Of a stretch of 64,000 nucleotides of DNA, positions 1-16,720 are shown piece after piece. A program made the position numbers and the translations under genes. This stretch comes from Lytechinus pictus (lineage: Eukaryota). Below the pieces are notes generated by a model. The model was given only the letters and a program-made list of their open reading frames with translations. It searched no databases and had not been told where the DNA came from. Where the stretch lies: the NCBI RefSeq assembly GCF_037042905.1, contig NC_087251.1, positions 8,682,001-8,746,000 on the forward strand, written 5' to 3'. Within the stretch, counting starts at the first letter, position 1, and every line of letters starts with the position of its first letter.

Positions 1-455
1 GCTCAACCCCCAGGCTCATACACTGTAATGTGCATGGTGCTGAATAGATGAAGCATGTGAAGCCTTAAAGCACTAGGAGTTTATTTGTTAAGATGTCAAG
101 AATTAACCACTTCCCTGAATATTTCTTGACTGATTTCACTATTTTGTACAAACAAAAAGGGTACAGAAAAAAAGGAAGGAACTTGTGGCGCAGATCTCCA
201 AAATATCATTCAGATCGATACGAAAAATTGCCTCATTTTCGTTACAGCGCAACTAATTTGTATATTCAGATGTCGCTTGAATGTGTCAGCATGATTGCTT
301 AAACCCACTTTTTAAAAGACACTATACACATGCATGGGTATTATTTGAGACTAATTCTGTGTATGCTTCCCTGGCAGACACAAATACCCCTATTAGATCT
401 CCATGACCAATTAACTAAGGTTATGTAATGTTCAGTTGTTATATTTCTTCCTTAC

Positions 456-624
456 CTGACGACAGATCCAGGTCTTCTGTATTAGGCAAGTTTGCTTGCA
501 CTTTCTTGTTGCTTTCTTTTGGCGTTCTGGCAGGATCACGATATCTGACGTTCCTTAGCCGCATTTCAATGTAACCTGATGAATCTTTTGTTTTGTTTTG
601 GCTTGCTGGAGTGAACCAGGTCAA
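456..624 (-). CDS. Coding exon 6 of the transposon SAM-domain accessory gene (LTWFTPASQNKTKDSSGYIEMRLRNVRYRDP...); the gene continues off the window
   Basis: Acceptor ttttactttaaag|TTG at 624 and donor CAG|gtaagg at 456; 169 nt, phase 0 to 1. The W-F...GYIExRLRNVR motif resembles SAMD3-like ORF2 proteins of animal EnSpm elements (recognised from memory). Confidence 0.8.
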
Positions 625-1048
625 CTTTAAAGTAAAAGAGTAAAAAAAGTAAAACAAAACTATTGAATTTTAGAAGTAGAGATCACTGTTCATAAGAATT
701 TGTATTACCCTTTGGGGTAACTGTACGGTCAATCAGATTTACCTTAATAAAGGCTTGCCCAATCTGAGACAATAACCTTTCAATGATTTAAGCATTTAGA
801 CTTTCAGTTGTATCAAGTTTCATCCACTTTTGTCTGGTTGAGTAAATAATAACCTGCTGCAGATAACGTGTTCAGGGGGTCATTTAGCATTAGCTGATAT
901 TAAGTATAAACAATGGTTATCTTGGTCATCATGAGCCTAAAGTCAATGATGAACATGGCTTGTAAATGGGTGATCCTATCTTTAACAAGTAACAATGTTA
1001 CACACAATTTATCTAGCCATGAACTAACATAATGAACTCAAAACTTAC

Positions 1049-1133
1049 GTAAGCATCATGATCATCATTGTCCAACGCAGGAAACTGGGTAACAATGCAT
1101 TTTGCCATTGCCAATTTTTGCTCTGTTTTAGGC
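1049..1133 (-). CDS. Coding exon 5 of the SAM-domain accessory gene (WPKTEQKLAMAKCIVTQFPALDNDDHDAY)
   Basis: Acceptor ttttcatttttctaaag|G at 1133 and donor TAC|gtaagt at 1049; 85 nt, phase 2 to 0, matching both neighbouring exons. Not in the ORF track. Confidence 0.8.
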
Positions 1134-1998
1134 CTTTAGAAAAATGAAAATTGAATGTTTAAGAATATTGTTTTAAAAGGCTATATATATTAGAGATTAA
1201 ATGCAATTCTTTGCAGGGAATAAATTACCTAGTATCGCATCGCAATTTGCTTTGCTTTTTTGCAGGGCTGCTACACAAAATTTACTTTGTGTCACAATTT
1301 TTTTTCCATGGGATTGTACATAATTTGTTTTAAATATTTTCCCATCTCCAAAAATTTCTAATCAAATCTGGGAAGCAAAATTATTCCCTGCTTTGAATTG
1401 TAGTCTGATGAACTTCTGCTTCATCGGTGATCTGCTTTGAGAATATCCTTTATATAGCAAAATTTTGATCCACCCATTTTCTGATTTTAGTAATTCCAAA
1501 CTCCCATCCTTTAATAAAGCAGACAAACAGTGCAAGGTGTATGTATCACACCAAACTATTTCCAAGCACCTGCATAATACACATGTAATGTCAGCTCATT
1601 GCATGTATTTGTTATGTAAATGTGATAAACAATTCAAAAGCTGTGTTTAAATATCAACACACAAGTTTCAATTATGCCATGAAAATGTAAAAAAATATAA
1701 ATTTATGTGAAATTTGTTAGATAAGATTACATGTATACAATTTTTATACCAAGTGTCTGGTTATTTCTGGTATGCAATGCACCAGTTAAGTTGATAATTA
1801 ACTTTTGTGTCATCTACAAGAGAAAGGGATTGCTTTTGAAATGGTATGTATGTGTCTGTGGTCAAACTTTTAATCCTTGACATCTATTTGATCACTGGAG
1901 TCAATTGGTAAGGCAAATAAGCAAATAAACTACCACATAGTATAGCACATCTAAATACGCTAGCATTTCCTTTTTCTGCTCATAGGATTTTAGCTTAC

Positions 1999-2138
1999 CA
2001 CTTTGTATATGTCTCTATCAGGTGTGAGACCAATGTGTTCACTATCAATTTTCGTGAATTGTAGCTGATGCACCCTTCCTCCATCTCCTTTATAAGCTCC
2101 TCCCCCTCTCTCCGTTTGGACAAGATGGCTCGTATGTC
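1999..2138 (-). CDS. Coding exon 4 of the SAM-domain accessory gene (DIRAILSKRREGEELIKEMEEGCISYNSRKLIVNTLVSHLIETYTK)
   Basis: Acceptor cttctgatctgcag|GAC at 2138 and donor TG|gtaagc at 1999; 140 nt, phase 0 to 2, open frame. The RKLIVNTLVSHL helix resembles this ORF2 family. Confidence 0.8.
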
Positions 2139-2308
2139 CTGCAGATCAGAAGTGATTACAAAGAAAGGTCATAAGTGGATGCTTTAAGTGATCCATGTAT
2201 GTGCCGGGGCCTTCACATCTAGAATATGAGAGAGATACTATAGGAACAGGAACAAACAAGGAGCCTAGCTAGTACATTTTTTTTCTTCATTTTGCGCCAA
2301 CAATCGTT

Positions 2309-2559
2309 AAATGTGGTACCATCATCCAAATCGATAGTTTCTGGGATTGTTTTCATACCTTTTTTTTAAATTAATTTCATATTTTTCTAAAAAACAGCCA
2401 ATATGTGTCAAATAACTGCTTTACAAATCATGGGTTTTTTGGTTTAAAAAAATGATTTTTGCCTTTACTGACAAATATTTTGAAAAATAGGAATTTAACT
2501 TAAAAAGAAAAAACAAAACATACCCAAGAACTATCGATTTAGATGATGTTTACCCATTT
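2309..2559. mobile_element. Small MITE-like inverted-repeat element in an intron
   Basis: ggtaccatcatccaaatcgatagtttctggga (from 2315) is an imperfect inverted repeat of acccaagaactatcgatttagatgatgtttacc (2522-2554). No clear TSD. Confidence 0.55.
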
Positions 2560-2807
2560 TTTACCCAAAAGTATTTTTTCTAGGCTTGTTAAAAAAATTG
2601 GATAAATAACTTGCTGTTTTTGGTGAGTTTCTGAAAAGCAAGTTCTTAATCTAAAATCTGATGCTATAATTAGATTTCTTGTGAAATTTCCTTTTAAAAA
2701 GTGTCTACATTTATTCAGCATACATTATCAGTTTTCAAGTTACAATGAAAACAATTTTACAGAAGTCGCAAGGCTCTGACCTCCCTTAATGTTGATTAAA
2801 AACTTAC

Positions 2808-3092
2808 ATGAGCCATCTTGATCTTTTTAGCCTCGGGTGGTTTGATGATAGATGTTGATGAACTGCTTGGGATAGACACTGACGAGTTGCTGGTGTTTGG
2901 GATATCTTCTGGTGGTTTAGATGTTGATGATGAACTGCTTCGGATAGACGTTGAGGAGTTGCTGGTGCTTGGGATATCTTCTGGTGGTTTGATGATAGAT
3001 GTTGATGAACCACTTGGGATAGACAGTGAGGAGTTGCTAGTACTTGGGATATCTTCAGAGAACGTGCAATCTTCAGAGATCAATGATGGTCC
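2808..3092 (-). CDS. Coding exon 3 of the SAM-domain accessory gene; Ser/Thr/Pro-rich linker with three tandem 23-25 aa repeats (EDIPSTSNSSxSIPSSSSTSIIKPP)
   Basis: Lies within ORF 2796..3164(-). Strong donor CAT|gtaagt at 2808 (phase 0). The acceptor is tentative: a pyrimidine tract ending cttgag|GGA at 3092 gives the required phase 0, but GAG is an atypical acceptor. Confidence 0.6.
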
Positions 3093-3832
3093 CTCAAGTA
3101 GTGAAGTGCAGAACAGATGGTTATTAATACAGTAAATCATTAAATTTGTTTTCACAATTCCCAAAACAGAGTGCTCAATGGATTCCCAGAGATAATTTAT
3201 TCAAAATTCCAAAAGTTCCAATCAGCATTTAATCACTATACTACTTATAGTTTCATACAAGAGTTGTACTAAGATCAGGTAGAATCACTAAATCTTTACA
3301 AAACTCCCTAGCTGGTTTACAAGCTCTTTCAGGAGTTCCTGAGCTATTGAGCTACTCAAACATGAAGGTCTATGTACTCCTTTGTTTTTTTTTTGGTCTG
3401 TTTGTTTTTATGTCAAAGCATCGACTTTTTTTTTTAAACTAAGAGTTTCTATTACATGTAAAACTTGAAAACTTATATACAGTATTAACATCCAAGTTTT
3501 TAGACCAAAAATTTGGATCCTGCATGTCCGTCAAAGTGTCAAGTTACATTGCTATGAACAGCAAGCAGTCATAAAGGAAGTGAGTTGTGAGTTGAAATTG
3601 TAACGAATTAATCAGATTTCTTCACATGCACAATGTGTATGCAGGTCAGAAACTCTACATGCAAACAAAAAATGTTATCTACATTGTGCATGTGTGCTGT
3701 GCACCCTCTACATGTGCATTGTATATCGAGCTCTGGCTCAAAATTAATGGTTTGTGACCTGCAGTAGATTGAAAATCCTGTTTTAGTAACTTAGCAAAAT
3801 AAATCAATCTTTTTTGCGATTGAATTACTCAC

Positions 3833-6346
3833 CTACAACATACATCTTGTGCTTATGTAATACAAGTCATCATCGTCATCATAGGATTTAGTAGCATGCA
3901 GGGGATTAGAGTCAATCAAATTCTCAACTTGAACCACAGTTATTTCCTTTGGCTCTTTAGGTTGTACCGCATAAGCATGGAAGTGTCTTTTAAATCCATA
4001 TGTATGCCACAAATGGCACACAAGAAAAACTGTTGTACCAACTGCAAGCACTGTTCTCACATTTCCAAATTGGGCATCTCCATTGTCATTTTTGCTAACT
4101 GCCACCATCATATTTTCACGATACTCAGTACCATAAACCTTGCACCACTGTGCAACATATATATCATCATATAAAGGTATGCTACATGTCTGAGATATAA
4201 TTTCAGCACCTTCCAATGATGCTAACATCACAGATAAACCAGGACCTGTTTCAACAGATTTCTGTGTCATTGTCTGATTGCTTAATACGTTATAGCAAAG
4301 CTGCATTTGGTTTCTGTAGGCTAGAGTTTTGGCAATATTTCTGAAATTGCACACAATGTGTGCCAAACGTTTAGAAAAGTTGTGCTTTCCTTCGAAACGC
4401 ATCACCCAATAAATAATGAGAGGTCCAAGCAGCTGCATTGCTGAAGGGTAGTGGCTCATGAAGTGGTGTTTCGGCTTCAGATCACGATCAGGAAAGAGTT
4501 GCAAAAAGAGCATGTGGTGGTCTCTAATTAATTGTGCCAAGAACAAGGTATGTCCCTTGCTTATCTTAGATGAAAAAATGATATCCATACATTGTTTCAA
4601 AGCTACGATAAGTTCCCAGTGCTCATCATCTTCTTGAATAAGATCTGCAAGCATAACTCCAATATGACGGACAAGGCACCACATTTGTGCTGCATGCTGT
4701 CCTGCAGCACCATCAGGAAAACGAAGCTGATTGCTAGTGAAGGGGCAGGGTTTGTTACTTGCATCAGGTAGGCCGTAATTGAAACTCGTAATCCTGGCAT
4801 TTAATGTTTCTAATGTAAAAGCTTGTTTTCTGATAAGTTCATGCAGCACCAATTTCACCTCCAAGGGGCACACTCCCTCTAGCATGTCATGCATGATGTC
4901 TGGTGCTCTGTTGTCTAGAGTATGAAAGTGTGTCAATTCATTCAAGATACATGGTGATTTTATACCAGTCTCTTGTAAGCTATTCCTATTAAGGTCCAGT
5001 TGATAATTCTCAGGTGTCCGCATTACTTCTTTTCTTTCAAGTAAAGCATGCTTTATGTCAGCACGTGGCATTCGGCAAGTTCTGCATGGAAAGTTTGCTG
5101 TGAAGCCCTCGCTGAAACCAAACAATGAGTGAATCCCTAGATTGTCTCCTACTACTTGTGCTATCCCAACCTTTACAACTCCATCAAGAGTGTCGGTATG
5201 AATGGCTATACCATCTGACTCAAGCACCTTCAGATCTTTCAGCAATTGTGACAAAATCACAGGATATCCATAAAGTTTTGCGTCACTTGAATTGAACAGC
5301 ATCAACAAATATATGTTTGCTAAAGTTGACCGGTATTGAGGTGGTACACTAGCAATTTTGAAATACACTCCTGTCAGTTTGTGAGTCCCAGACTTAGGAC
5401 TAAGAGGGTTGGTAACCTCGAAGTCATCTACATACAGAATTAGTTTGATTGTACGAGTGCTAGATAAAAACCTACTTTGCCTGCAGAAAAAACCATCTTG
5501 AAAATCATGCATCATACCATCTGTGCTTGGTACATAGCTTACAGCTAGTTTCATAAGATCTGTTTTTTCAAGCAATAAGGTTATTAGCTTTTTAATTGGA
5601 ATGTACTGGCATGTGATAGTCTTCATAACCTGCTGCACATTGCCTGTTAAACGGTTATTACATGGATAATATGCAATACCTATTGTAGTTTGTTCAGGCT
5701 GAATAAAAGCTGCACTGTTCTTGAAGAATTTCTTCTGCTTGTATTGACTTTCCATGTTATCAAACGGGTGGGAAACCATATCTATATCCAATAGGAGACT
5801 TTGAAATTCATCATTTTCTTCAAGTCCAGTTTCTGCACCGAATTTTTGCACCTTATATTTTATATACATACACGTGTCTTTAACTAAAGAAGCTGACTTT
5901 TCTACAACTTCATTAACTGTGGTATGGACAATGCTACTGTTTGCCAGCAGACCCGCAACCAGCATGACAGCCCGTTCCTTAATTTCATCCTCACCAAAAT
6001 AATCCCACATCTCAGCATCCCCTTCTGTTGGGTCAATGTCAACATCAATGTTTTCAGCAAAATCATTGCCTGCGTCAACATCTGCAGCATTATCAAAATT
6101 ACCATGTGGACGTGGTGGGACATGGCCATGTGGTTCTCTAGTACAAGCATGACTCATCAAGTGGCGCTTGAACTGTTCCGTTCTGCCTGAGAATGTTCGT
6201 TGGCACCCTTCCTGCATACATACTATACTTTCTGTAAAAATACGGCCCTTAATAACACCATGTCGATTCTGTAAATGCCATAAAATTGCTTTACTGCCAC
6301 CGTCTATAAGTTCACCACACTTGGGACAAGTACAATTATATTCCAT
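3833..6346 (-). CDS. CACTA/EnSpm (CMC) DDE transposase, 837 aa, intronless and apparently intact
   Basis: Two N-terminal C2H2-like fingers (CPKC...HLQNRH; CMQEGC...HLMSH). CMC-type catalytic signature: YVDDFEVTNPL (D), GDNLG (D), CRTC (CxxC), PDIMHDMLEG, KPKHHFMSHYP (HxxxH), WVMRFEGKH (E). No stops or frameshifts. Confidence 0.92.
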   Translation of the reverse strand: MEYNCTCPKCGELIDGGSKAILWHLQNRHGVIKGRIFTESIVCMQEGCQRTFSGRTEQFKRHLMSHACTREPHGHVPPRPHGNFDNAADVDAGNDFAENIDVDIDPTEGDAEMWDYFGEDEIKERAVMLVAGLLANSSIVHTTVNEVVEKSASLVKDTCMYIKYKVQKFGAETGLEENDEFQSLLLDIDMVSHPFDNMESQYKQKKFFKNSAAFIQPEQTTIGIAYYPCNNRLTGNVQQVMKTITCQYIPIKKLITLLLEKTDLMKLAVSYVPSTDGMMHDFQDGFFCRQSRFLSSTRTIKLILYVDDFEVTNPLSPKSGTHKLTGVYFKIASVPPQYRSTLANIYLLMLFNSSDAKLYGYPVILSQLLKDLKVLESDGIAIHTDTLDGVVKVGIAQVVGDNLGIHSLFGFSEGFTANFPCRTCRMPRADIKHALLERKEVMRTPENYQLDLNRNSLQETGIKSPCILNELTHFHTLDNRAPDIMHDMLEGVCPLEVKLVLHELIRKQAFTLETLNARITSFNYGLPDASNKPCPFTSNQLRFPDGAAGQHAAQMWCLVRHIGVMLADLIQEDDEHWELIVALKQCMDIIFSSKISKGHTLFLAQLIRDHHMLFLQLFPDRDLKPKHHFMSHYPSAMQLLGPLIIYWVMRFEGKHNFSKRLAHIVCNFRNIAKTLAYRNQMQLCYNVLSNQTMTQKSVETGPGLSVMLASLEGAEIISQTCSIPLYDDIYVAQWCKVYGTEYRENMMVAVSKNDNGDAQFGNVRTVLAVGTTVFLVCHLWHTYGFKRHFHAYAVQPKEPKEITVVQVENLIDSNPLHATKSYDDDDDLYYISTRCML

Positions 6347-6401
6347 TAGAATAGTGTTTCCGATATACTCCTTTACAGAGTAAAAGTCAAAATAAAAGTA
6401 C

Positions 6402-6517
6402 CTTCAATTCCTTTATCCTTTGGAGCAGCTTTGATCTTGGACCAAGTGGCTTTATCAAATCCGCTTTCACAGCTTGATCATCAAGGAGAAGGAGGGTTTC
6501 TTGGTCAATCTCTTGTT
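6402..6517 (-). CDS. Coding exon 2 of the accessory gene; C-terminal part of a SAM domain (EQEIDQETLLLLDDQAVKADLIKPLGPRSKLLQRIKELK)
   Basis: Acceptor ttttatttgtaacag|AA at 6517 and donor AAG|gtactt at 6402; 116 nt, phase 1 to 0. EIDxExLLLL...LGPRxKL is a typical SAM pattern. Confidence 0.85.
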
Positions 6518-8211
6518 CTGTTACAAATAAAACCATATGACCATATTCCGTGTTATTCATGATCCAGATTACAGGCATTGTGGGCATGTGTGTTTTTACC
6601 AGGTTTTCATGAGGGGTGTAATTAGAAAGAAAAAAAATTAGTGGTTCTTGAGTCGAAGTTCTCGCTTCGATCTCATGGAGCAGTAGTTGGGGAATCTTCA
6701 TAATACATACAATGTAGCTGAATTTGGTAGAATTTAATTGGTATCAAATTCAAGAAACACTTTTGAAGTTTGAAACATAATATTTGCTGATGACCTACAC
6801 AAATCTTGGAAAATTAGGAAGATTCAAAGTTCTTCACATGGCTTTCTAGTGCGCATGTAAGCAAAATCTTTCTGCAATATTAGCGTAAGTGATAATGGCG
6901 CAAAAAACCTGAGGCACACTATGTTTATCTCACACATATTAATGCATTGCATCTTCCCTTTTGTGTTCTAAGCATGCAAGGACCCAAATTCCCCAAAATG
7001 CCCTTTAATATTTGACCAACTGAAAATCATATGACACCCCTCCCCCATAAGTTTCTCCTTGCCCCTTCCCCTGTAAATAATGCACGCTCTTTATCGACCA
7101 AAATTTTCCTCTGTGTAATTTGATGGGAAACATATCGATTCTAATCGGATACTCTAATAGTCGCTACAGATAAACCATTTGCAATAGAAAGCTCAAACTT
7201 CTTGAGGATGTCAAACTTAGTATTATCTTTATTCTGGTATCCTTTGATAAGCAAAAAATTCAAAAAAATTTTGAAAGAATGAAAAGCACCCTCATGCTAC
7301 ATTTTAACCTATGATGGCGCATTTCACAAAAACGAAATGTCTGATTTTTACAGAACTTTCAAAATCTTGTATTTTGACTTCATTTGCATCTAATTTGACA
7401 CCAAAGGTACAGAAATATTCACTGAAAATGAGTGAAATTAAGTAACTTTTTGCTCCTTCCCACAATTTCAATAGCTATGAGCTGACATAAGAGGGCATGG
7501 CGCACCTTTTTGGTAAACACATAGTCCAAAATTTTTCCATATTATATTGAGATAAGTCATTTCCCACAAAAAAAACACTGTTGTAAAAATTAAATTACCA
7601 AAAAAGTGTTTTTGACCCCTGTATAAAGCCCACTCCTACTTCAACAACAAACATAAGGCGGAACAAAATTGTTCTGGTTACATACTGCCCAGAAAGTTGG
7701 GTAAGTCTGTCGGCAAAACATTTTATTTTGAACAACAATTTAAAGTTGATCGCTCATTATAAATATTCCAAGTAAAAATGAGTGCAAAATTTGGAAGTTT
7801 GACATCACACACCTTCAAGCTTGCTAACCCCCTACAAGCCAAACAGCTCCGTAGGTCAAAGCATGGCCAAACAAATCCATAGCCAGACAGGCTCACATTA
7901 TAGATGGAATATTATTTTATTGTTGCTTGAGGAATTTCTCGAACGGATAAAAAAGTGTGTAAAGTGATTTGTTACTAACCATGAACGCCCAACGTTATTC
8001 TCGGACTTTGATTGAACGGCAGTAAATGTCTTGCGTGCTGCGTACATTCAAATACGGAAGGCTTAGGCATGCATTTACTGTGCATATTTAACACTGTTTT
8101 GCATACCAAATGCAGTGTTAAACTCAATTAAACTTGCTCAGTCTGAGAAATTCTTCAAGCAACAATATCAAATTTTGCGACAGTTGAACAGTTATGATTA
8201 CAAAAGCTTAC

Positions 8212-8278
8212 CTTCAAAATTTTCCAGAAATCTTTCCAGCCCCCACATCACTAGTTTCTCTTTAACAAAGTCATCCAT
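8212..8278 (-). CDS. Coding exon 1 (start codon) of the accessory gene; N-terminal part of the SAM domain (MDDFVKEKLVMWGLERFLENFE)
   Basis: ATG at 8278 and donor GAAG|gtaagc at 8212 (phase 1), which joins in frame to the 6517 exon and completes a SAM-like ...WGLERFLENFEEQEID... Candidate upstream acceptors at about 8298 and 8327. Confidence 0.8.
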
Positions 8279-8692
8279 GATGACAACACACTCCAATCTG
8301 GAAGGAGATCCGTGAAAAGGAAGGAGCTGTATAAAAAGGGAAGATAATCATTATCGGGGTTAAAAGTTTGGTTCAACTTTTTAATTTGACATCACATTTT
8401 CAATTTGACTTAACTCATATATAGAGGACCCTCTCCTAATGGCCTCAAATGTTGAAAATTAGTTTTGCATAAATCTGTTTCTATCTCTTTCCTACGAGGG
8501 CTAGCATTTTCTTGTGAGGGGGGGGGGTCCAAATTTACAAAAAGTCGACGGCGATAAAGTTACAACACCCCTATTTCAGCAACAAAAATTTAATAACCCC
8601 CATCAATGATACACTTTACCCCCTAAAGAGGCTAAAATTGTATTGAAATCAGTCCTTTTGAGCAAAATAAACACACTATCTGTGGTCATCAG

Positions 8693-8862
8693 GTGGGTGT
8701 TTCATAAAGCTGTTCGTAAAGTTACGAACGACTTTACGCACGACTGGAACATGTTCTTAGGTCATAATTCAATTACATAGGGATATCACAGAGCACAAGA
8801 AAGGATCACCAGTCGTTCGTAAAGTCATTCGTATCTTACGAACAGCTTTATGAAACACCCAC
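8693..8862. mobile_element. PIF/Harbinger-like MITE, 170 bp, with 3-bp CAG TSD
   Basis: Perfect 27-bp TIRs gtgggtgtttcataaagctgttcgtaa / ttacgaacagctttatgaaacacccac, with further imperfect symmetry inward. CAG flanks both ends (8690-8692, 8863-8865). Superfamily inferred from the 3-bp TSD. Confidence 0.8.
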
Positions 8863-10294
8863 CAGGTGACTTCAAACTTTTTGATCATCAAAATGTCATT
8901 TTAATACTCCTTGGGTATAAATTTTTCTAAAATTTAACTCTTGGGCGATTATGAGACACATTTCTTTTTTATTTAAATTTTTTCCCCTCAAATAGAGCTC
9001 AAACTAAATTTCTATCTGATTTAATTTGACATGATAGACTAGAGCTGAATTAAGAAGCACTCATACAGGAATGTTAATTATTTGTCTCTGGAGACATAAG
9101 AACATTTATAAGATGGAAACTATCCCCTCTAATTTCATAATTTTTTCGATTTTGAGAAAACCATTAGAGTGGTGGGTTTGTATGTTGCTGCTGTTTCTAC
9201 AACATAAAAAATCAATAGGTGTGGGTAAAAAATACAGTTGTCTATAAGGCAAGGGCAATAATGGAACTTGTAAACATAAAACTGGCAACGAGTTCTCAAG
9301 CTTTAAAATGGGCCAAAAATTAGTTTAAAAAAATCAGTTCTTTGAGCCCCTATTTTGGTGCCTTTCCATTCTTTAAGCCCCTATTTTCAGCCCTGCGAAT
9401 CTCACACCCATACCAAAACAAAAGTTTAGTACCCCTCCCCCCCCCCCCCCGATCGATATTTGCTCTTGGAACCAAATTATGTCTCACATATATGAAATTC
9501 TTGTAGGCCTACATGGCATTATAAGCTTAGTGTTCAAAAATAAAAATTCCAGGGGAATTCGTCCCCTCCCCCCCCCCCCTTAGTACTGCCACTGCTGAAA
9601 AATGTCTCTGGAGTGGCTTCTGACATGACTTGCCGCGATAAATTGCTCTGACTTAACCCATTTTAGATGTGCCACTGAGCGAAATCATGCACGCTCGCTT
9701 TAAAAGACAATATCTGATCTGATTTTGTAGGCACACAATATTTCATTTCCAGTAATTTTTCAACAAACCCCCCCCCCCAAAAAAAAAAAAACATTTTAAG
9801 GCCAAGTAAAACAAAAAAAAATGGTTCTCTTCTGGTTTTTGGAAAAATAGGAGGGGCTCTTTGTTTTTTATTGAATTAATTTCTGAATACCTACGGTTTA
9901 TAGCACTATATTTTCAATATGCGGTGCCCCCCAAAAAGATGGAGGCCTTTTTATTTTCTTGTTTCAAACATCTTTATAAAACAAGTTATATGGCCTTGGG
10001 AATTAAAGTTCCGGGGAGGGGAGGTAGTAGACTTGCATCTTTTTGAAATCACACAGGGCTTTATTTTTGTTCATTATCAGATCACTTATATAATATTCTG
10101 AGAAAATAAAAAAGTCCTGAATACAAAGTCTGTTGCAATTAGAATTTGTTGAAATACATGTAAATATATGCAAATGTCTCTAATTTCCCCCCTCGATCGG
10201 ATTTGTTCTTTTTTACTAGCCCTGACAATATACATATCGGTCATATCAGACCAGCAAACTAAGCTAATTGCCTGACAGTGACTTTTACTGGTAA

Positions 10295-10640
10295 GGCCAA
10301 GTAAAATCAATTCCTAGTTTCTCGTCCGGATTTTTCGAAAATGAGGAGGGGGTTCCATGTTATTTATTTGATATTTGATTTTTTTTTATACACAAAAATG
10401 CTATTGGGTCAACTTCAACACATTCTTCACAAATTTAGTAACACTTGTACTACACTACAGAGGATCGAAACAAGGTGTAATTGCATATTAATGTTTTTTG
10501 GTATATCATTGTCTAGAAGTCCTCATATTTTTATTCATATCATTTCAGAACAAAAATATCAAATAACAAAGCAATTAAGGCGGCCCCAAAAAAAGGAAGG
10601 AGGGGACGAGAAAAAAAATTGAAATTATTTTTATTTGGCC
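10295..10640. mobile_element. MITE with GGCCAA termini (Harbinger-like); a related degraded copy lies at about 9800-9995
   Basis: Left end ggccaagtaaaatcaattcctagtttctcgtcc resembles the reverse complement of right end ggacgag...ttttatttggcc. Flanks are TAA and TCA. The same ggccaagtaaaa start occurs at 9800. Confidence 0.6.
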
Positions 10641-11392
10641 TCATCTGACCACCTGACAGGTGTGTGTCAAGCCCTTTTTTTTGGGGGGGTGGTCTACATA
10701 TGTGACCTACTATCTCAAAAGCCCACAATAAGTCACCTAAAATGAGTTTTGAAATTTTCATTGTTGAAATTCCATTATTTTAATTATATTATTCTAGAAT
10801 TTACAAGACGGCTGTGCCCTTAGCCTTTAGGTGTTGACATGCGTAGTCAGTCACAACTATGTCAACAGAGGGTTTCCTTTATGATAAAAATATTGAGGCC
10901 TAATCTTAAAGATCCATAATGCTTAGAAAATGTTTCGAATCGGCTACTCTTAAAATGTGGGATAATTCATCAAAGCACATAGTAATAAAGTACTAAAATC
11001 TACAAGAAAGGCCAACTGAGAAACTCTGATTTCTGAAACGAATTGAAATAAAATCACAGGTTTCTGGTAGGCTTTGAGTTTCCCCCTCCTGCGCTAAGCG
11101 TGGAAGCTTTGAAATTTCCTGAAATCATTAGCAAAAGAAGACAATCTTTGTTGTGATTCTACATCTGCCCTTTCCCTAACTTCTCTTACTTTTTCATTTT
11201 TTTTTCTCTCTCCCCCTTTCTCCCTCTCTCCTTTTTTTGTTTTTTTTTGGGGGGGTGACTGCCCCAACCCCCCCAGCTACATGCCTGGTAGTTATGACAC
11301 TGATGGCTAGTTTTATCTCAATGTCAATCTTGACACTTTGCCAAAGACTCTCTTTGCATGCATATAATATAGGCCTAGGCCTACATAAAAAA

Positions 11393-12480
11393 ACTAGAAA
11401 TATCACTATCAGTGATTAATAATACTACCCCCGCCAGCAGCGCTCTACCTACATAAAAAATAATATCCCACTATAATAACCCCAAAAAGAAAAGAAAAAA
11501 TGAAATATTTTGAAGTCTATCAGTTAGGGCAAAAACTATGCATCATCAGATATATCAAAGAATGACATTTCACTGAGAATCCAATCAACAGTGCAACCTT
11601 CTTTTTTTTTAACTATTAGGCCTATATCTTGCACTTCTTCATATCACTATGGACCCATGCACCGAATTTCAAATCAATTGGTCAAAAAATGAGGGAGTAG
11701 TATGATCCACAAGATTTTTGCACCAATTTTATTTTAAAATGTTGTTGCCATGGCAACGCAATTCTCGACTTTGACGAAAATTATATCTTGCACTTATATT
11801 TTATACACATCAATATGGACTTAATGTTCCAAATTTCAAATTAATTGGTCCTTAACTGAGGGAGTAGTATGATCCACAAAAATTTTGCACAAATTTCATT
11901 CAAAAAATGCTGTTGCCATGGCAACACGATTCTCGACTCTGACGAAAAATATATCTTGAATTTTTATACATCATTATGGACCTATGTAAGCCTACTAGCC
12001 TAATTAAAAATTCAGGTCAATTGATCAAAAACTGAGGAAGGAGTTAGATCCACAAATTTTTTGCATGAATTTCATTCAAAAAATGCTGTTGCCACGGCAA
12101 CGCAATTCTCAACTTTGATGAACAATATATCTTGCACTTCTATACATCATTATGGACCTATGTAGGCCTACTAAATTTCAGGTCAATTGATCAAAAACTG
12201 AGGGAGGAGTTAGATCCACAAGATTTTTGCATGAATTTCACTCAAAAATGCTGTTGCCATGGCAACACATTTCCCGACTTTGACGAAAAATATATCTTGC
12301 ACTTCTACATATCATTATGGACCCATGTATTAAATTTCAAGTCAATTGATCAAAAACTGAGGGAGTTTGATCCACAAGATTCTGCAACGGACCGCCCGCC
12401 CGCCCGGCCACACGGTGATTCCTATATAGGGCCTAGGCCTACCCCCTTACAGTTACACACCTTGTGTGTGGCGGGGGTAT
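11393..12480 (-). mobile_element. Non-autonomous Helentron-type element (HINE/DINE-1/pearl-like) with a central array of about 165-176-bp tandem repeats
   Basis: Subterminal inverted repeats TACCCCCGCCA (11426-11436) / TGGCGGGGGTA (12469-12479). Minus-strand 3' hairpin ATCACT-gat-AGTGAT followed by a CTAGT end in a T run. (CCGC)n microsatellite near 12390-12408. About 4.5 tandem units over 11620-12380. Confidence 0.8.
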
Positions 12481-13200
12481 AAAAAATCAGTAGTAGGCCT
12501 AAGTTAGGCCTACTAGGCCTAGGCTATAGCTACCTTCAAGACAGTGAAGCCATAACTTAGGCATTCATTGAAAAAAAATTGAATATCAAATACTAAAGTT
12601 AGGCCTAGGCCTAAACTAAGTTAGGGCCTAGGCTAGGCTAGGGCTAGGCCTTGATCTAGTCTAGCCTTGGCCTGGGTCAGGGCCCAGGCCTGCCGCCTAG
12701 TATGAAATGAGGTTTGGAATAAAAATATGCTTCTTGACATTTTTGTGCATGAGATCGCTGAATACCTTAGCCTTCAGGGCCTATACAATCCACGCTTCAT
12801 GAATATACTCGTAATGTAGATAGATCTAGGCCCCGCCGGGATCTAACAGTTAGGCCTATAGCTAGGCCTACATGGGTCTGCCTTGTTTTGCCTTGCCTTG
12901 CTCAAGACGACTCGACATGCTATTGCTAACCATAACTTACTAGGCCTAGTAGGCCTAAAGTTAGGCCTAATACTAGTTAGATAGGCCTAACGTTAGACCT
13001 AAGGTAGGCCTAGCCTAGCCCAACTTCCAAGCCTAACTTACTCGAGTTCCATTTGCTGTCTTATGACTGAGACTGCTAGTGCTAGCCGCGAGACCAGGGC
13101 CAGGGCCAGGCCCAGGGGTGAACATCATAAAACAACATCAATTCCAGACTAATCATTGTGCAAACTGCATGCAGACTGTCGAATGCAGTAGGCTAAGGCT
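12430..13200. repeat. Dense cluster of TAGGCCTA palindromes and variants
   Basis: About a dozen exact TAGGCCTA between about 12434 and 13012, plus many TAGGCT/GGCCTAG variants, irregularly spaced. Confidence 0.85.
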
Positions 13201-13445
13201 AAGCTACCGTACATCAATCATATTCATAACGTATGTGCATCGAGTAGCATCGCAGTGATCGTACATGACATTTTGTGAGTTGCATTGACATTTTGTGAGT
13301 TGCATTTTGACCGAAAATCGTATGATGGCACTGTTGCAGATACAAGAAATTTGTTCAAGAGAATAGAGCATATTAATACATATAAAAATAAAACTACTTC
13401 ACCGACAAAATCATGTAATATCTTACAGATTAAACTGGATAACTT

Positions 13446-13560
13446 ACCGCGGTATACACTCATGATATGGCGACTGATTTCAAATGATCGTCTGCGTGGC
13501 TGCGCTAGCTGCGCGCGCGGCCGGCGCGGTGACGTCAGTCAACAAGTTTGACCAATGAAA
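13446..13560 (-). promoter_or_regulatory. Putative transposon promoter and short non-coding first exon
   Basis: CpG-rich patch gcgcgcgcggccggcgcgg, perfect CRE TGACGTCA (13530-13537), CCAAT (13552-13556). On the minus strand, TCAGTCGCCAT (Inr/YY1-like) is followed by donor GCG|gtaagt at 13448/13447. It lies just inside the subterminal repeats. Confidence 0.55.
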
Positions 13561-13632
13561 TGTTTCATCGAAGACAACGTCATTTTGAAGAGAATACGTA
13601 TCAAAAATTTTCAGCATCCACGTCATTTTGTC

Positions 13633-14178
13633 GGGGGGGGGGGGGCACTCAACTTTGGGTTTGGTAGGGATGTGCGGCCCCGGTTTCTGAAACGGGGGAC
13701 AGGTATAACCGAGTTGACTCTGAAAAGGAGATCTATAACCGAAGTGACCTTAAAAGCAGTGGCGGCACCAGGATTTTTAAGGGGGGGGGGGGGCAAATAG
13801 GGGGCAAAACAAAATGTGGGGGGGGGGGCAATGCCGGACAAAAAAACCCTCCCTTTTCTTTTCTTTCTCATTTTCAACCCTTTAATTTTTCACTCCGAAA
13901 ATTATTGGGGGCAACTTGGAGGGGGGGGTCAAATGCCGTTTGAAGTTGAGAGCTATTTTTTGTCAATTGCTCTGGAAGCAAAAAAATCTGAAATTTGCTT
14001 AAAATGGCCGGGGGTCTAGATATTAAATTTCCCCCAAAAGGGATTAAGAATTTTCAAAAAGGGCTTGTGAACTAAATATTGTGCTTGAATTTATATGGGG
14101 TCTACGGAGCGGCAGGCAATTAAGGCGTGAAGAGGGTGTTTGCGGTGGCACATTTTTTAGGTCAGTACGTGCCCCGGG
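13633..14178. mobile_element. Non-autonomous DNA transposon inserted into the CACTA subterminal region; contains a truncated CAGTGGCGGCACC-type element from about 13757
   Basis: Flanked by the direct repeat cattttgtc (13624-13632 and 14179-14187; 8-9-bp TSD). The termini (c)ggggg...gcac and gtgccccggg are inverted repeats. Confidence 0.75.
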
Positions 14179-14182
14179 CATT

Positions 14183-14485
14183 TTGTCATTCAAAAGGGAA
14201 CGATTCTCTATTTTCATTAAATAGTCTTCTATTCAAAATATTTGACAAGGAAATCTTTTTGTTATTGTCATTCAAAATGAAACGATTCTTTTCATTTTAA
14301 ATAGTTTTCTAATCATTTTGAACAGTTTTCTATTCAAAATATTTGACAAGGAAATCTTTTTATCTTTGTCATTCAAAATGAAACGATTCTTTTTCATTTT
14401 GAACAGTTTTCTAATCATTTTGAATAGAAAACTATTCATTTTGAATAGTTTTCTATTCGAAAATATTTGACAAGGAAATCTTTTC
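14183..14485. repeat. CACTA subterminal repeat array
   Basis: Three imperfect units of about 80-120 bp (ttgtcattcaaaa...atatttgacaaggaaatctttt) built from TTCAAAAT/ATTTTGAA motifs in both orientations, directly inside the CACTCTTAAAA terminus. Confidence 0.85.
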
Positions 14486-16720
14486 AGAATTTGAAGAGGT
14501 TATTTTAAGAGTGTATATATCTTTGTGGTATGATAGAAAGACCTAACAAAGTGAATAAGAAAAGAGAAATGTATACATGGAAATGAAGAAGGAATACGAA
14601 AATATAAAATCACAATCTTTTCAAAGACCATAAAAACGGATTTATCGTTTTTGGTGACATATAGGCTTTATAGATCTGTAGATGGAAAAGGACCCTTTTC
14701 CATTTTTTGTGATTTATATGATTGACATGTAAATTGATCGGAATATTCTATGATCTTGGGAAGAAAATGTAACAGATCGTGCGAATCTGAGTGTAAAGGA
14801 TGAAAGGAAAGCTCAAATAATCCTGAGCATTGAAAAATGAGTCCATTTGAAAACTGCAAAAGTAATTCAAGAGTATCTCTATATATTTTCTTTCCTGTCA
14901 TTTCATTCACATCCGATCTTCAGCTATACTTTCATCATCTGACCTATCCGACCATTTACGCATCTTTTTGTATTTGATGTCATCTATACGGTCAAATCAC
15001 TTTGCAGCATGTTACAGTCAGTAAAGTTCAGCTGAGAAGTTTTGTGTCCTTATTATTTTTTAAATATAATTTTTTTAAAGTTTTATCGCAGCATAGACCT
15101 TTTGCATGTAATACTTGATTTCTACTTTTTCTTATTTGTAAATGCATGAAAACGGGGGGGGGGGGGGTAACACAATTTTTTGAAAAATGAAATAAATAAA
15201 GACATGCAATGCATCTATGTATTCAAATACATTATCATTCAACAGCCTGGTTAATATTTATTTCGGATATATCTTATTTTTCCCCTCATTTATTCAAGCA
15301 GAGATAACGAATGCAAAAAAGAGCAAGAACAATCATATTCACAAAATAAAACTCAGAAAATTCATTTGTAGTCTCCTTATGTAGAATTACTCCAATATTA
15401 TCAAAAGGCCTTGTTAATGTATCATGTTTGAATATAGATTTCTAATTTTCTCCCTATCATGCCTATTCTCTCACATCTGAATCAGCCTCCATCCCCGAGA
15501 TAGCTGCAGATGTTTTTCAAAAACACATTTACTTGCCTTTCTGAGCGGTACATATTCTTAAACTTTTCACTTAGCCATTGGTTTTGAAATCGGAGCAGAC
15601 GTTATTTCACTCTGTGCTTCTTGAAAACACTTGACGTGGGTGTAACATTTAGCCCACGTTTCACTCTGCTGTTTGAGCGGAACAATTTCTATTCACCCTT
15701 TCCCGTCTAACCACGCACCCTTGGGTTGCCTAAGATAGCTTCTAAAGAGGACTGCTTGGTCAGGTATGTGGTCTGCATGATAAAATACTCATCTTGTCAA
15801 ATGTGTATATTATGTATAACTTGTAGAAAGGTACACTGTCTTCTGACAAAATCAAAATTCGATTGCAACACCTTTATGAATCCCATCGACAAAAAGTTAT
15901 ATAAAGTCGACCTGACGCGCATTTGTGTGTGGGTGTGCATGTGCGTCTGTGCGAGTTTGTAATGACCTACTTCTGGGGACAATTTTTTACAGTTTACCCT
16001 TTAAGTGGGGACGCCACCGGCAAAGAAAACCATTCCAATCAATCCCCAATCTCATTTTAAATCGTTTCATATAGTAAATGTAGGGTTACAAAAGGTTCCC
16101 TTTTGGCATATTTAACTCTAGCTGTGTGTGTACTATGTAGGGGGTAAAACGCGTCCCCGGTTAGCAAACTAACGTATGCTCATGTAAAATGTCAGAAAAT
16201 TAGCCGGTTGGTGGATTAAATCCAAACTTTCGAGTGTATGAGACCGCAAACCCATGTCCCCACTCTGGCGATAAGTGAGTCCCCGAAAACCAACTTACAA
16301 GACGGTGAGGGTGTGTGTGTGTGTGTGAGGGTGTATGTGTGAGTGTTTTGCTGCTTCTTATGTGTGCTTAAAGGTCACGTGGCCATGACTGTTATTTCAA
16401 TGTGGGCTAAAGTTCATCGCTCAATGGCCCCGAGGTCCAACAGAAATGTATTGATATGAAAATGATCTTCAAACTTTGAAATGTAATAGTAGTTTGTTAC
16501 CCCCAAACTAACGTTTTCTGTGTGAGGAATGTACGGTTTATATAGGTTTGGCCCAAAAATATTGAAGATTACATTAAGTAACTGACGTTTTTAATTTGAA
16601 GTTGCAAATGTCACAAATTGGCTTTCGATGGCTCAAATTACATACTTTATTGTCAATATCAATATTTCTTATTCTTATCAAATTATGTTTTAACAAAATA
16701 AAATAATCAAGGAAAGTGGT

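Follow-up and report, generated by a model that had tools for sequence, protein, structure and literature searches.

Joint cargo of a SAM accessory gene and a transposase in a 23-kb CMC-like transposon of the sea urchin Lytechinus pictus, with a possible 5' splice site choice between the two products

Here, we analyse a 64,000-nucleotide (nt) stretch of the genome of the sea urchin Lytechinus pictus (contig NC_087251.1, positions 8,682,001 to 8,746,000; hereafter the window) and find in it part of a young 23-kb DNA transposon whose joint cargo is an accessory gene, coding for a protein with an N-terminal SAM domain, and a transposase open reading frame (ORF) that sits in an intron of this gene. 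The accessory messenger RNA (mRNA) splices out the transposase ORF as one intron. On balance, we lean towards the view that the ORF encodes a transposase of the CMC (CACTA/Mirage/Chapaev) type and that a single transcription unit gives rise to both products by choice between two 5' splice sites, not by use of a cassette exon as put forward in a preliminary description of the window. All splice sites and reading frames reported here are on the minus strand, all coordinates are window positions, and a slash within a splice site marks the exon boundary.

When splicing uses the weak donor that closes the SAM exon (6402/6401), the product is the abundant accessory mRNA with its SAM protein of 551 amino acids (aa), and this branch is observed. 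If the same donor were passed over, the SAM exon would continue through a 55-nt spacer and the 2.5-kb ORF, and the strong donor at 3832 would join this long exon to the same acceptor at 3093 and hence to the accessory 3' exons and the poly(A) site. Translation of the transposase from its own ATG would need reinitiation, or else a 5' end without the accessory ATG or exon 2, which would keep the transposase scarce. Such an exon extension needs no acceptor in the 31-nt interval downstream of the SAM donor, and it would explain the adjacency of SAM exon and transposase, the fused relatives and the conserved donor described below. The features concerned are the following.

14492 to 14513, minus strand: 5' terminal inverted repeat (TIR), starting CACTCTTAAAA..., where the ends of six copies align and their flanks differ
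14185 to 14484, minus strand: 5' subterminal array of short CTATTCA...TGAATAG-type repeats, direct and inverted, as read from the sequence
13448 to 13560, minus strand: putative non-coding exon 1, start undefined, ending GCG/GTAAGT (donor 13447), placed from sequence only
8212 to 8326, minus strand: exon 2, accessory start codon at 8278 (ATG) and the 22 codons that open the SAM domain; acceptor AG at 8328-8327; RNA joint 8212 to 6517
6402 to 6517, minus strand: SAM exon, the second half of the SAM domain, with the weak donor AAG/GTACTT; RNA joints, and SAM_1 at E 1.2e-4 in Pfam
3093 to 6401, minus strand: intron of the accessory mRNA, 3309 nt, containing the entire transposase ORF; RNA joint, GT..AG
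6371 to 6401, minus strand: interval of 31 nt from the SAM donor to an acceptor-like AG at 6372-6371
3833 to 6346, minus strand: transposase ORF without introns, 837 aa; C2H2-like zinc finger near the N-terminus and putative DDE-type core
3827 to 3832, minus strand: consensus donor GTGAGT after the transposase stop, a sequence feature with locus-wise p 0.005
2808 to 3092, minus strand: accessory exon 4, Ser/Thr-rich repeats; acceptor GAG at 3095-3093; RNA joint and protein mapping
1999 to 2138, minus strand: accessory exon 5; RNA joint and protein mapping
1049 to 1133, minus strand: accessory exon 6; RNA joint and protein mapping
445 to 624, minus strand: accessory exon 7, 3' end approximate; RNA joint 1049 to 624 and protein mapping
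about 8.5 kb left of the window start (locus L011, about 1507 to 1528): 3' TIR, counterpart of the 5' TIR

RNA data for window positions 1-15000 came from three raw runs carrying the same species label, of which about 6% was sampled, and from a contig set, X1, that is labelled 'RNA?'. Among the data sets listed as containing window positions 3700-6550, none is recorded as RNA. One contig of this set (3526 nt, depth 16.5) shows the minus-strand GT..AG joints 8212 to 6517, 6401 to 3091, 2807 to 2137, 1998 to 1132 and 1049 to 624, and runs 28 nt past exon 2 on its 5' side. The joint 6401 to 3091 removes 3309 nt, i.e., the transposase ORF plus both flanks. By joining 6402 to 3092, the contig bears out the proposal of the preliminary description that skipping of the ORF yields the SAM accessory protein, and its joints, including that from 8212 to 6517, confirm the splice coordinates 8212/8211, 6401 and 3093 given there. 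A processed retrocopy as origin of the spliced contig was rejected because all 79 scored genome matches run exon by exon.

The joined exons translate from the ATG at 8278 into a protein with the SAM domain at its N-terminus, split across two exons. This accessory protein matches a 551-aa Lytechinus pictus RefSeq protein at 88-100% per exon match over ten exons of the element; four more accessory exons lie left of the window, down to window position -4892. In the cluster tables, the 837-aa protein is isoform X1 and the 551-aa protein isoform X2 of LOC135155178 (RefSeq, Lytechinus pictus), which means that the NCBI annotation already has both as alternative products of a single gene and agrees with the earlier suggestion that transposase and SAM protein come from one transcription unit. 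SAM_1 was the sole domain that Pfam recognised in the accessory protein, where a DNA-binding domain was not found, and a Pfam scan at E <= 1 of 11 reading frames from the downstream half of the element, several of which are accessory exons, returned chance-level matches only. Exon 4 (2808-3092) encodes three tandem Ser/Thr-rich units (EDIPSTSNSS..SIPSSSSTSIIKPPE) and is missing from the gene model of a Holothuria relative. Among the six donors of the gene, that of the SAM exon scores lowest (4.9, against 6.0-11.0 for the others), whereas the donor after the transposase stop reaches 10.9.

At the 5' end of the unit, the donor GCG/GTAAGT at 13448/13447 is plausible on sequence grounds, and a CRE-like site, TGACGTCA, stands just upstream of putative exon 1. 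An ATG at 13463-13461 in this exon would, if exon 1 were spliced to exon 2, open a short upstream ORF (uORF) whose TGA overlaps the accessory ATG at 8278.

The repeated unit that contains both genes measures 23.0 kb and extends from window position 14513 to a point some 8.5 kb beyond the left end of the window, as delimited in a 30-kb alignment of seven copies. At least six full copies are at least 99% identical and lie between unrelated flanks, and one further copy is 97% identical. Seven copies of the transposase ORF, including that of the window, are intact in the same genome at 98-100% protein identity, next to dozens of diverged relatives. The ends common to six copies show that the element starts CACTCTTAAAATAACCTCTTCA and ends TGAAGAGGTTTTTTTTAGAGTG, forming CACTC...GAGTG TIRs, and a subterminal array similar to that at the 5' end is present at the opposite end (L011:1521-1834), both arrays, of about 300 bp each, lying within about 320 bp of the element ends. 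Four of the five copies for which both flanks are available have a 2-bp target duplication (TA/TA in three, CA/CA in one); the window copy is flanked by TA/AT at 2 bp, or by ATA/ATA if 3 bp are taken. Target-site duplications of CMC elements are 2-3 bp long in Repbase usage. Two internally deleted derivatives both lack window positions 8747 to 2407. As judged from sequence, the element is apparently intact, autonomous and recently active. The alternative of a host gene with a transposon in its intron was rejected, since the entire accessory gene lies inside the TIRs and is copied along with the ORF. The preliminary description had neither this transposon setting, in which everything it discussed lies inside one 23-kb element, nor the precedent of the maize element En/Spm.

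Some copies have insertions of their own: the C8 copy (L018-L020) has gained about 6.6 kb at the equivalent of window position 1905, and the C1 copy (L024-L026) about 3.0 kb just 5' of the transposase stop, near window positions 3846-3849. Two regions are dense in different families and fragments of the transposase, with at least 7 hits on the 757-kb contig C31 (G000:C31:200000-400000) and at least 13 on C1 (G000:C1:43010000-43275000), and may each be a transposon-rich cluster.

Assignment of the transposase to a superfamily draws on both the protein and the element. An exhaustive search found 11,884 cluster representatives that match the transposase at E <= 0.001, mostly of 800-850 aa, with named relatives from echinoderms, a brachiopod, a nemertean, insects and a fish. 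Against Pfam, the window transposase itself gave no Transposase_21 or Plavaka match at E <= 1 and only a weak zf-BED match. Among 57 aligned relatives, PF02992 (Transposase_21, the CACTA tnp2 family) was matched at E <= 0.01 by nine (best 1.2e-5), Plavaka by two and DUF4218 by one, all of these matches being below the curated cut-offs; a second set of relatives gave PF02992 in 3 of 19 and Plavaka in 2 of 19, and the Atlas ranking for the transposase points to Plavaka. D307, D401 and H486-D487 are invariant and E490 is nearly so; we read these as the probable DDE triad. The element further shows CAC-type TIRs, a short duplication, subterminal arrays and near-identical copies at unrelated sites. 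The combination of weak Pfam matches, CAC termini, short duplication and subterminal repeats places it in or beside the CMC superfamily, with the protein itself agreeing weakly.

The SAM exon closes with ...GAATTGAAG at 6402, its last base, and is followed by the GT at 6401-6400. Read past this donor, the SAM frame ends at TGA 6389-6387 (VLLF-stop, in the context TTT TGA C), 40 nt upstream of the transposase ATG at 6346-6344, and eight in-frame codons (24 bases) separate the acceptor-like AG at 6372-6371 from the same ATG. The transposase frame is +1 relative to the SAM frame and open from 6403. At the far end of the ORF, the stop codon TAG (3835-3833) directly abuts GTGAGT, and AATAAA is absent within 130 nt 3' of the stop. 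Upon re-reading, all letters and coordinates that had been reported for 6402/6401, 6372-6371, the ATG, VLLF-stop and TAG/GTGAGT proved correct. The heptamer TTT TGA C (6386-6392, minus strand) ends the SAM frame where the transposase frame is open in +1, and the +1 shift site of prfB reads CUU UGA C; its likeness to +1 shift sites is probably a coincidence in T-rich sequence.

Both candidate splice sites of the ORF were compared across 12 independent transposase families of the same genome, with 27-65% protein identity to that of the window. Donors were scored with a heuristic matrix, and the region after the stop was set against all equal-width windows of the same locus. At the locus of the window family, a donor that reaches the score of the post-stop GTGAGT on this matrix is present in only 0.5% of 14-nt windows. 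A donor-like site 0-10 nt 3' of the stop occurs in 6 of the 12 families (locus-wise p <= 0.064; binomial p 5e-4), or in 5 of 11 without the window family (p 0.003).

Window family: TAG/GTGAGT
L034: TAG/GTATGC
L031: GTG/GTAAGA
L036: AAG/GTACGT
L032: CAG/GTAGAA
L035: GAA/GTATGT

In families L009, L030, L037, L038, L041 and L042, this interval downstream of the stop contains no such site. As far as this scoring can tell, the post-stop donor is a recurrent feature that exceeds chance. For acceptors, we asked for at least 12 pyrimidines among 17 positions and no AG in the preceding 12 nt. Chance alone would place a site of the quality of the window's AG in 55 nt of intron of this element with P about 0.18, and no acceptor-like site was found between SAM donor and ATG in L031, L034, L035, L036, L037 and L038, leaving the window family as the only one with such a site. 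By these sequence comparisons, the acceptor-like AG is at chance level and not conserved. Conservation across related elements, which the preliminary description had named as a test of both sites, was thus found for the donor but not for the acceptor.

Several observations weigh against the choice between two 5' splice sites. Contig set X1 covers the ORF from about 4001 to 6073 only (depth 3.4-5.8), has a depth of 0 in bin 3501-4000 and leaves 6074-6400, beyond the SAM exon, uncovered. No read or contig was seen to run across 6401-6346 or across the junction 3833/3092, where coverage is nil, and the three raw runs do not exceed about 1.2x, their reads falling on both strands. What depth there is in bin 3001-3500 is fully explained by the part that is exon; the overall depth pattern would fit splicing from 3832 but is ambiguous, as the last 170 nt or more of the ORF are bare as well, and was not used as evidence. 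In addition, the 65-codon upstream ORF that ends in VLLF-stop is a poor context for reinitiation, and the donor scores depend on the heuristic matrix. The AG at 6372-6371 also resembles AAG acceptors that the gene really uses, confirmed as ...TCTAAAG/ and ...CTTTAAAG/. Finally, in the closest sister family, L009 (65% identity), the SAM exons lie 3.3 and 1.8 kb upstream, a strong acceptor stands 58 nt before the ATG and no donor follows the stop, while family L041 reads tttcag/ATG, so that own acceptors have arisen in this superfamily.

The last points bear directly on the alternative that the ORF is a true cassette exon, with the AG at 6372-6371 as acceptor for the donor at 8212 or 13448, GTGAGT at 3832 as donor, and the SAM exon excluded. 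The pyrimidine-rich tract and branch-like TTTTGAC that accompany the AG, its resemblance to confirmed acceptors, the clear acceptors before the ATG in the sister L009 and the distant L041, and the conserved post-stop donor all speak for it. Yet the acceptor is at chance level and is missing from the other SAM-adjacent families, and the C31 copy (97-98%) has lost 21 nt of the pyrimidine tract in the 31-nt interval with its ORF still open, though this copy may be dead; its pN/pS of 0.6 (7 synonymous and 16 non-synonymous among 23 differences) is uninformative on selection. No joint at 6371, nor at 3832, is among those listed, but coverage at both is nil, and a uORF from exon 1 or exon 2 would overlap the transposase ATG. 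We regard a cassette exon as unlikely, though not far-fetched; in outline, the splicing switch of the preliminary description stands, and the acceptor assigned to it is probably wrong. It is somewhat more doubtful that the transposase has its own promoter, in the intron or in the region of the SAM exon, and its own 3' end, with the splice-like sites being incidental. Most relatives do keep an ATG 2-5 codons before the first Cys, and contig set X1 covers the ORF while the intron bins 3501-4000 and 7001-7500 have a depth of 0. However, the 130 nt after the stop hold no AATAAA, both the post-stop donor and the tight adjacency of the SAM exon are conserved, the two proteins are entered in RefSeq as isoforms of a single gene, and families without an ATG of their own could not be expressed in this way.

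That a fusion of SAM domain and transposase is still made in the window family, by removal of the 31-nt interval or by a +1 ribosomal shift at TTT TGA C (6392-6386), seems very improbable. The two frames do differ by +1 with the transposase frame open from 6403, L031 and L036 share this arrangement, L037 and L038 are one in-frame stop away from a fusion, and in-frame fusions exist in other lineages. On the other hand, such an open frame is expected about half the time with spacers this short, the frame relation varies among families (+1, -1, 0) in the manner of an old fusion in decay, and the window family keeps its own transposase ATG. An intron of 31 nt would be too short for the distance that spliceosomes usually need between donor and branch site; the micro-intron considered in the preliminary description is unlikely on these general grounds, and it was not seen. 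For the ribosomal shift, no stimulatory element was found, although no search was aimed at one.

Returning to the choice between two 5' splice sites, several relatives of the window transposase speak for it. Only 8-45 nt lie between the end of the SAM exon and the transposase ATG in the window family, L031, L034, L036, L037 and L038; in L030 the distance is about 130 nt. In L035, one frame of 966 aa runs from the SAM exon into the transposase without a stop and without a Met at the zinc finger. A SAM motif in frame with the transposase is also present in 9 of 179 relatives from the databases. Examples are an Asterias rubens RefSeq model with a full SAM domain, linker and transposase, and isoform X1 of a Folsomia candida protein; in the Holothuria gene model, SAM, transposase and accessory exons are joined and follow one another as they do in the window's element. 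Unfused families have a Met at the position of the zinc finger; fused ones do not. Because the SAM exon reads in frame into the transposase in the fused lineages, production of transposase there needs the SAM donor to be passed over. Between SAM and transposase, three families show a frame offset of +1 and one an offset of -1, two keep a common frame interrupted by one stop, and one is fused; L031 and L036 are among those with +1 and an open frame, and L037 and L038 are separated by one in-frame stop. As read from these sequences, the varied relations look like the decay of an old fusion.

It is tempting to propose, as a possibility that we hold only tentatively, that use or neglect of the SAM-exon donor is an ancient switch shared by a large branch of animal CMC elements, by which one SAM oligomerisation domain comes to head the transposase in one case and the accessory body in the other, that the window family is derived, and that vertebrate SAMD3 is a domesticated accessory gene. 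Under such a scenario, passing over the donor would place SAM on the transposase and using it would place SAM on the accessory body, and the two proteins could assemble through the shared domain. In the window family, the link would have been cut by the stop and the +1 offset, leaving the transposase to be translated from its own ATG with low yield. SAMD3 enters through the Atlas, where a chordate SAMD3 cluster (535 aa, N-terminal SAM) ranks second for the 551-aa protein (0.95; 215 of 256 features). It may derive from this kind of transposon accessory gene, a lead given by a feature ranking that carries neither alignment nor E-value. A word-indexed sequence search with accessory residues 150-551 reached six proteins, all echinoderm, and SAMD3 was not among them; among the papers listed by a literature search for SAMD3 together with transposase, none treats such a link.

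A nested, hairpin-like (MITE-like) repeat at 8690-8870 lies in an intron of the element and outside the mechanism discussed here. It is very abundant and has an enormous depth in all four RNA data sets (mean word depth about 9,000 in contig set X1), with many opposite-strand joints and loose ends, and the breakpoint at 8747 of the deleted derivatives falls inside it. The best Rfam match for 8696-8859 was a MIR821-like hairpin far below threshold (30 versus 249 bits), and a tRNA scan of the same positions found none.

Near-identical 23-kb copies in a laboratory sea urchin make self-regulation in the style of En/Spm testable in an animal, with the amount of transposase, its splice form and its tissue as questions that can be put. 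They also give annotators a reason not to take the many echinoderm models named 'uncharacterized SAM protein' or 'C2H2 protein' for host genes. If the shared SAM domain and the SAMD3 lead were true, they would link a vertebrate gene whose origin is unknown to a helper protein of transposons. In the limited literature searched, no description was found of a SAM-headed accessory protein, of a SAM domain shared with a transposase or of two alternative donors, and the available part of preprint 10.1101/2021.09.26.461848 contains neither 'SAM domain' nor 'alternative splicing'.

According to the available part of PMC1636069, which has Masson 1989 and Frey 1990 in its reference list as the original papers, the abundant short mRNA of En/Spm, which encodes the accessory protein, splices out transposase ORFs that lie in an intron, a rare long mRNA contains the transposase ORF followed by accessory exons, and Spm tnpD carries two ORFs in tandem. 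A transposase in an intron of an accessory gene is thus already known from En/Spm, and the sea urchin case is not unprecedented. As far as that source describes the maize system (tnpA/tnpD), the two elements are alike in their CAC... termini, subterminal arrays, short target duplication and accessory mRNA that loses the transposase ORF with an intron, and probably in having a single unit for both products. They differ in that the sea urchin element has an animal host and an accessory protein that starts with a SAM domain, and in that its transposase ORF follows a coding exon instead of non-coding exon 1. In many relatives of the sea urchin element, unlike in En/Spm as described there, the SAM exon is read in frame into the transposase, and the switch in the sea urchin element is likely to be a choice of 5' splice site. 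Pfam Transposase_21, moreover, is matched below threshold only, among relatives of the sea urchin transposase.

A counterpart among animals is SmTRC1 of Schistosoma mansoni, a CACTA-related element with one long ORF that is spliced out in most expressed sequence tags (DeMarco et al. 2006, PMC1636069, in the part available). In its rare clone B4, the ORF is joined to 3' exons that encode a second protein, and TRC-related sequences were reported from a sea urchin (same source). The TIR core of SmTRC1 and of insect TRC elements is CCC there, in contrast to CAC in the sea urchin element, and the available text on SmTRC1 does not mention a SAM domain. From what is described, SmTRC1 and the sea urchin element share removal of the ORF in the common mRNA and, as we infer for the latter, a rare form with the ORF plus 3' exons.

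In the Drosophila P element, retention of the third intron gives a truncated repressor, and the spliced form gives the transposase. The sea urchin element would resemble it in that the production of active transposase depends on how a single transposon transcript is spliced. Splice control of the P-element transposase is also mentioned in the available part of PMC4158355. Compared with the P element, the sea urchin element belongs to a different superfamily and assigns the products the other way round, the spliced form yielding the accessory protein and the unspliced form presumably carrying the transposase.

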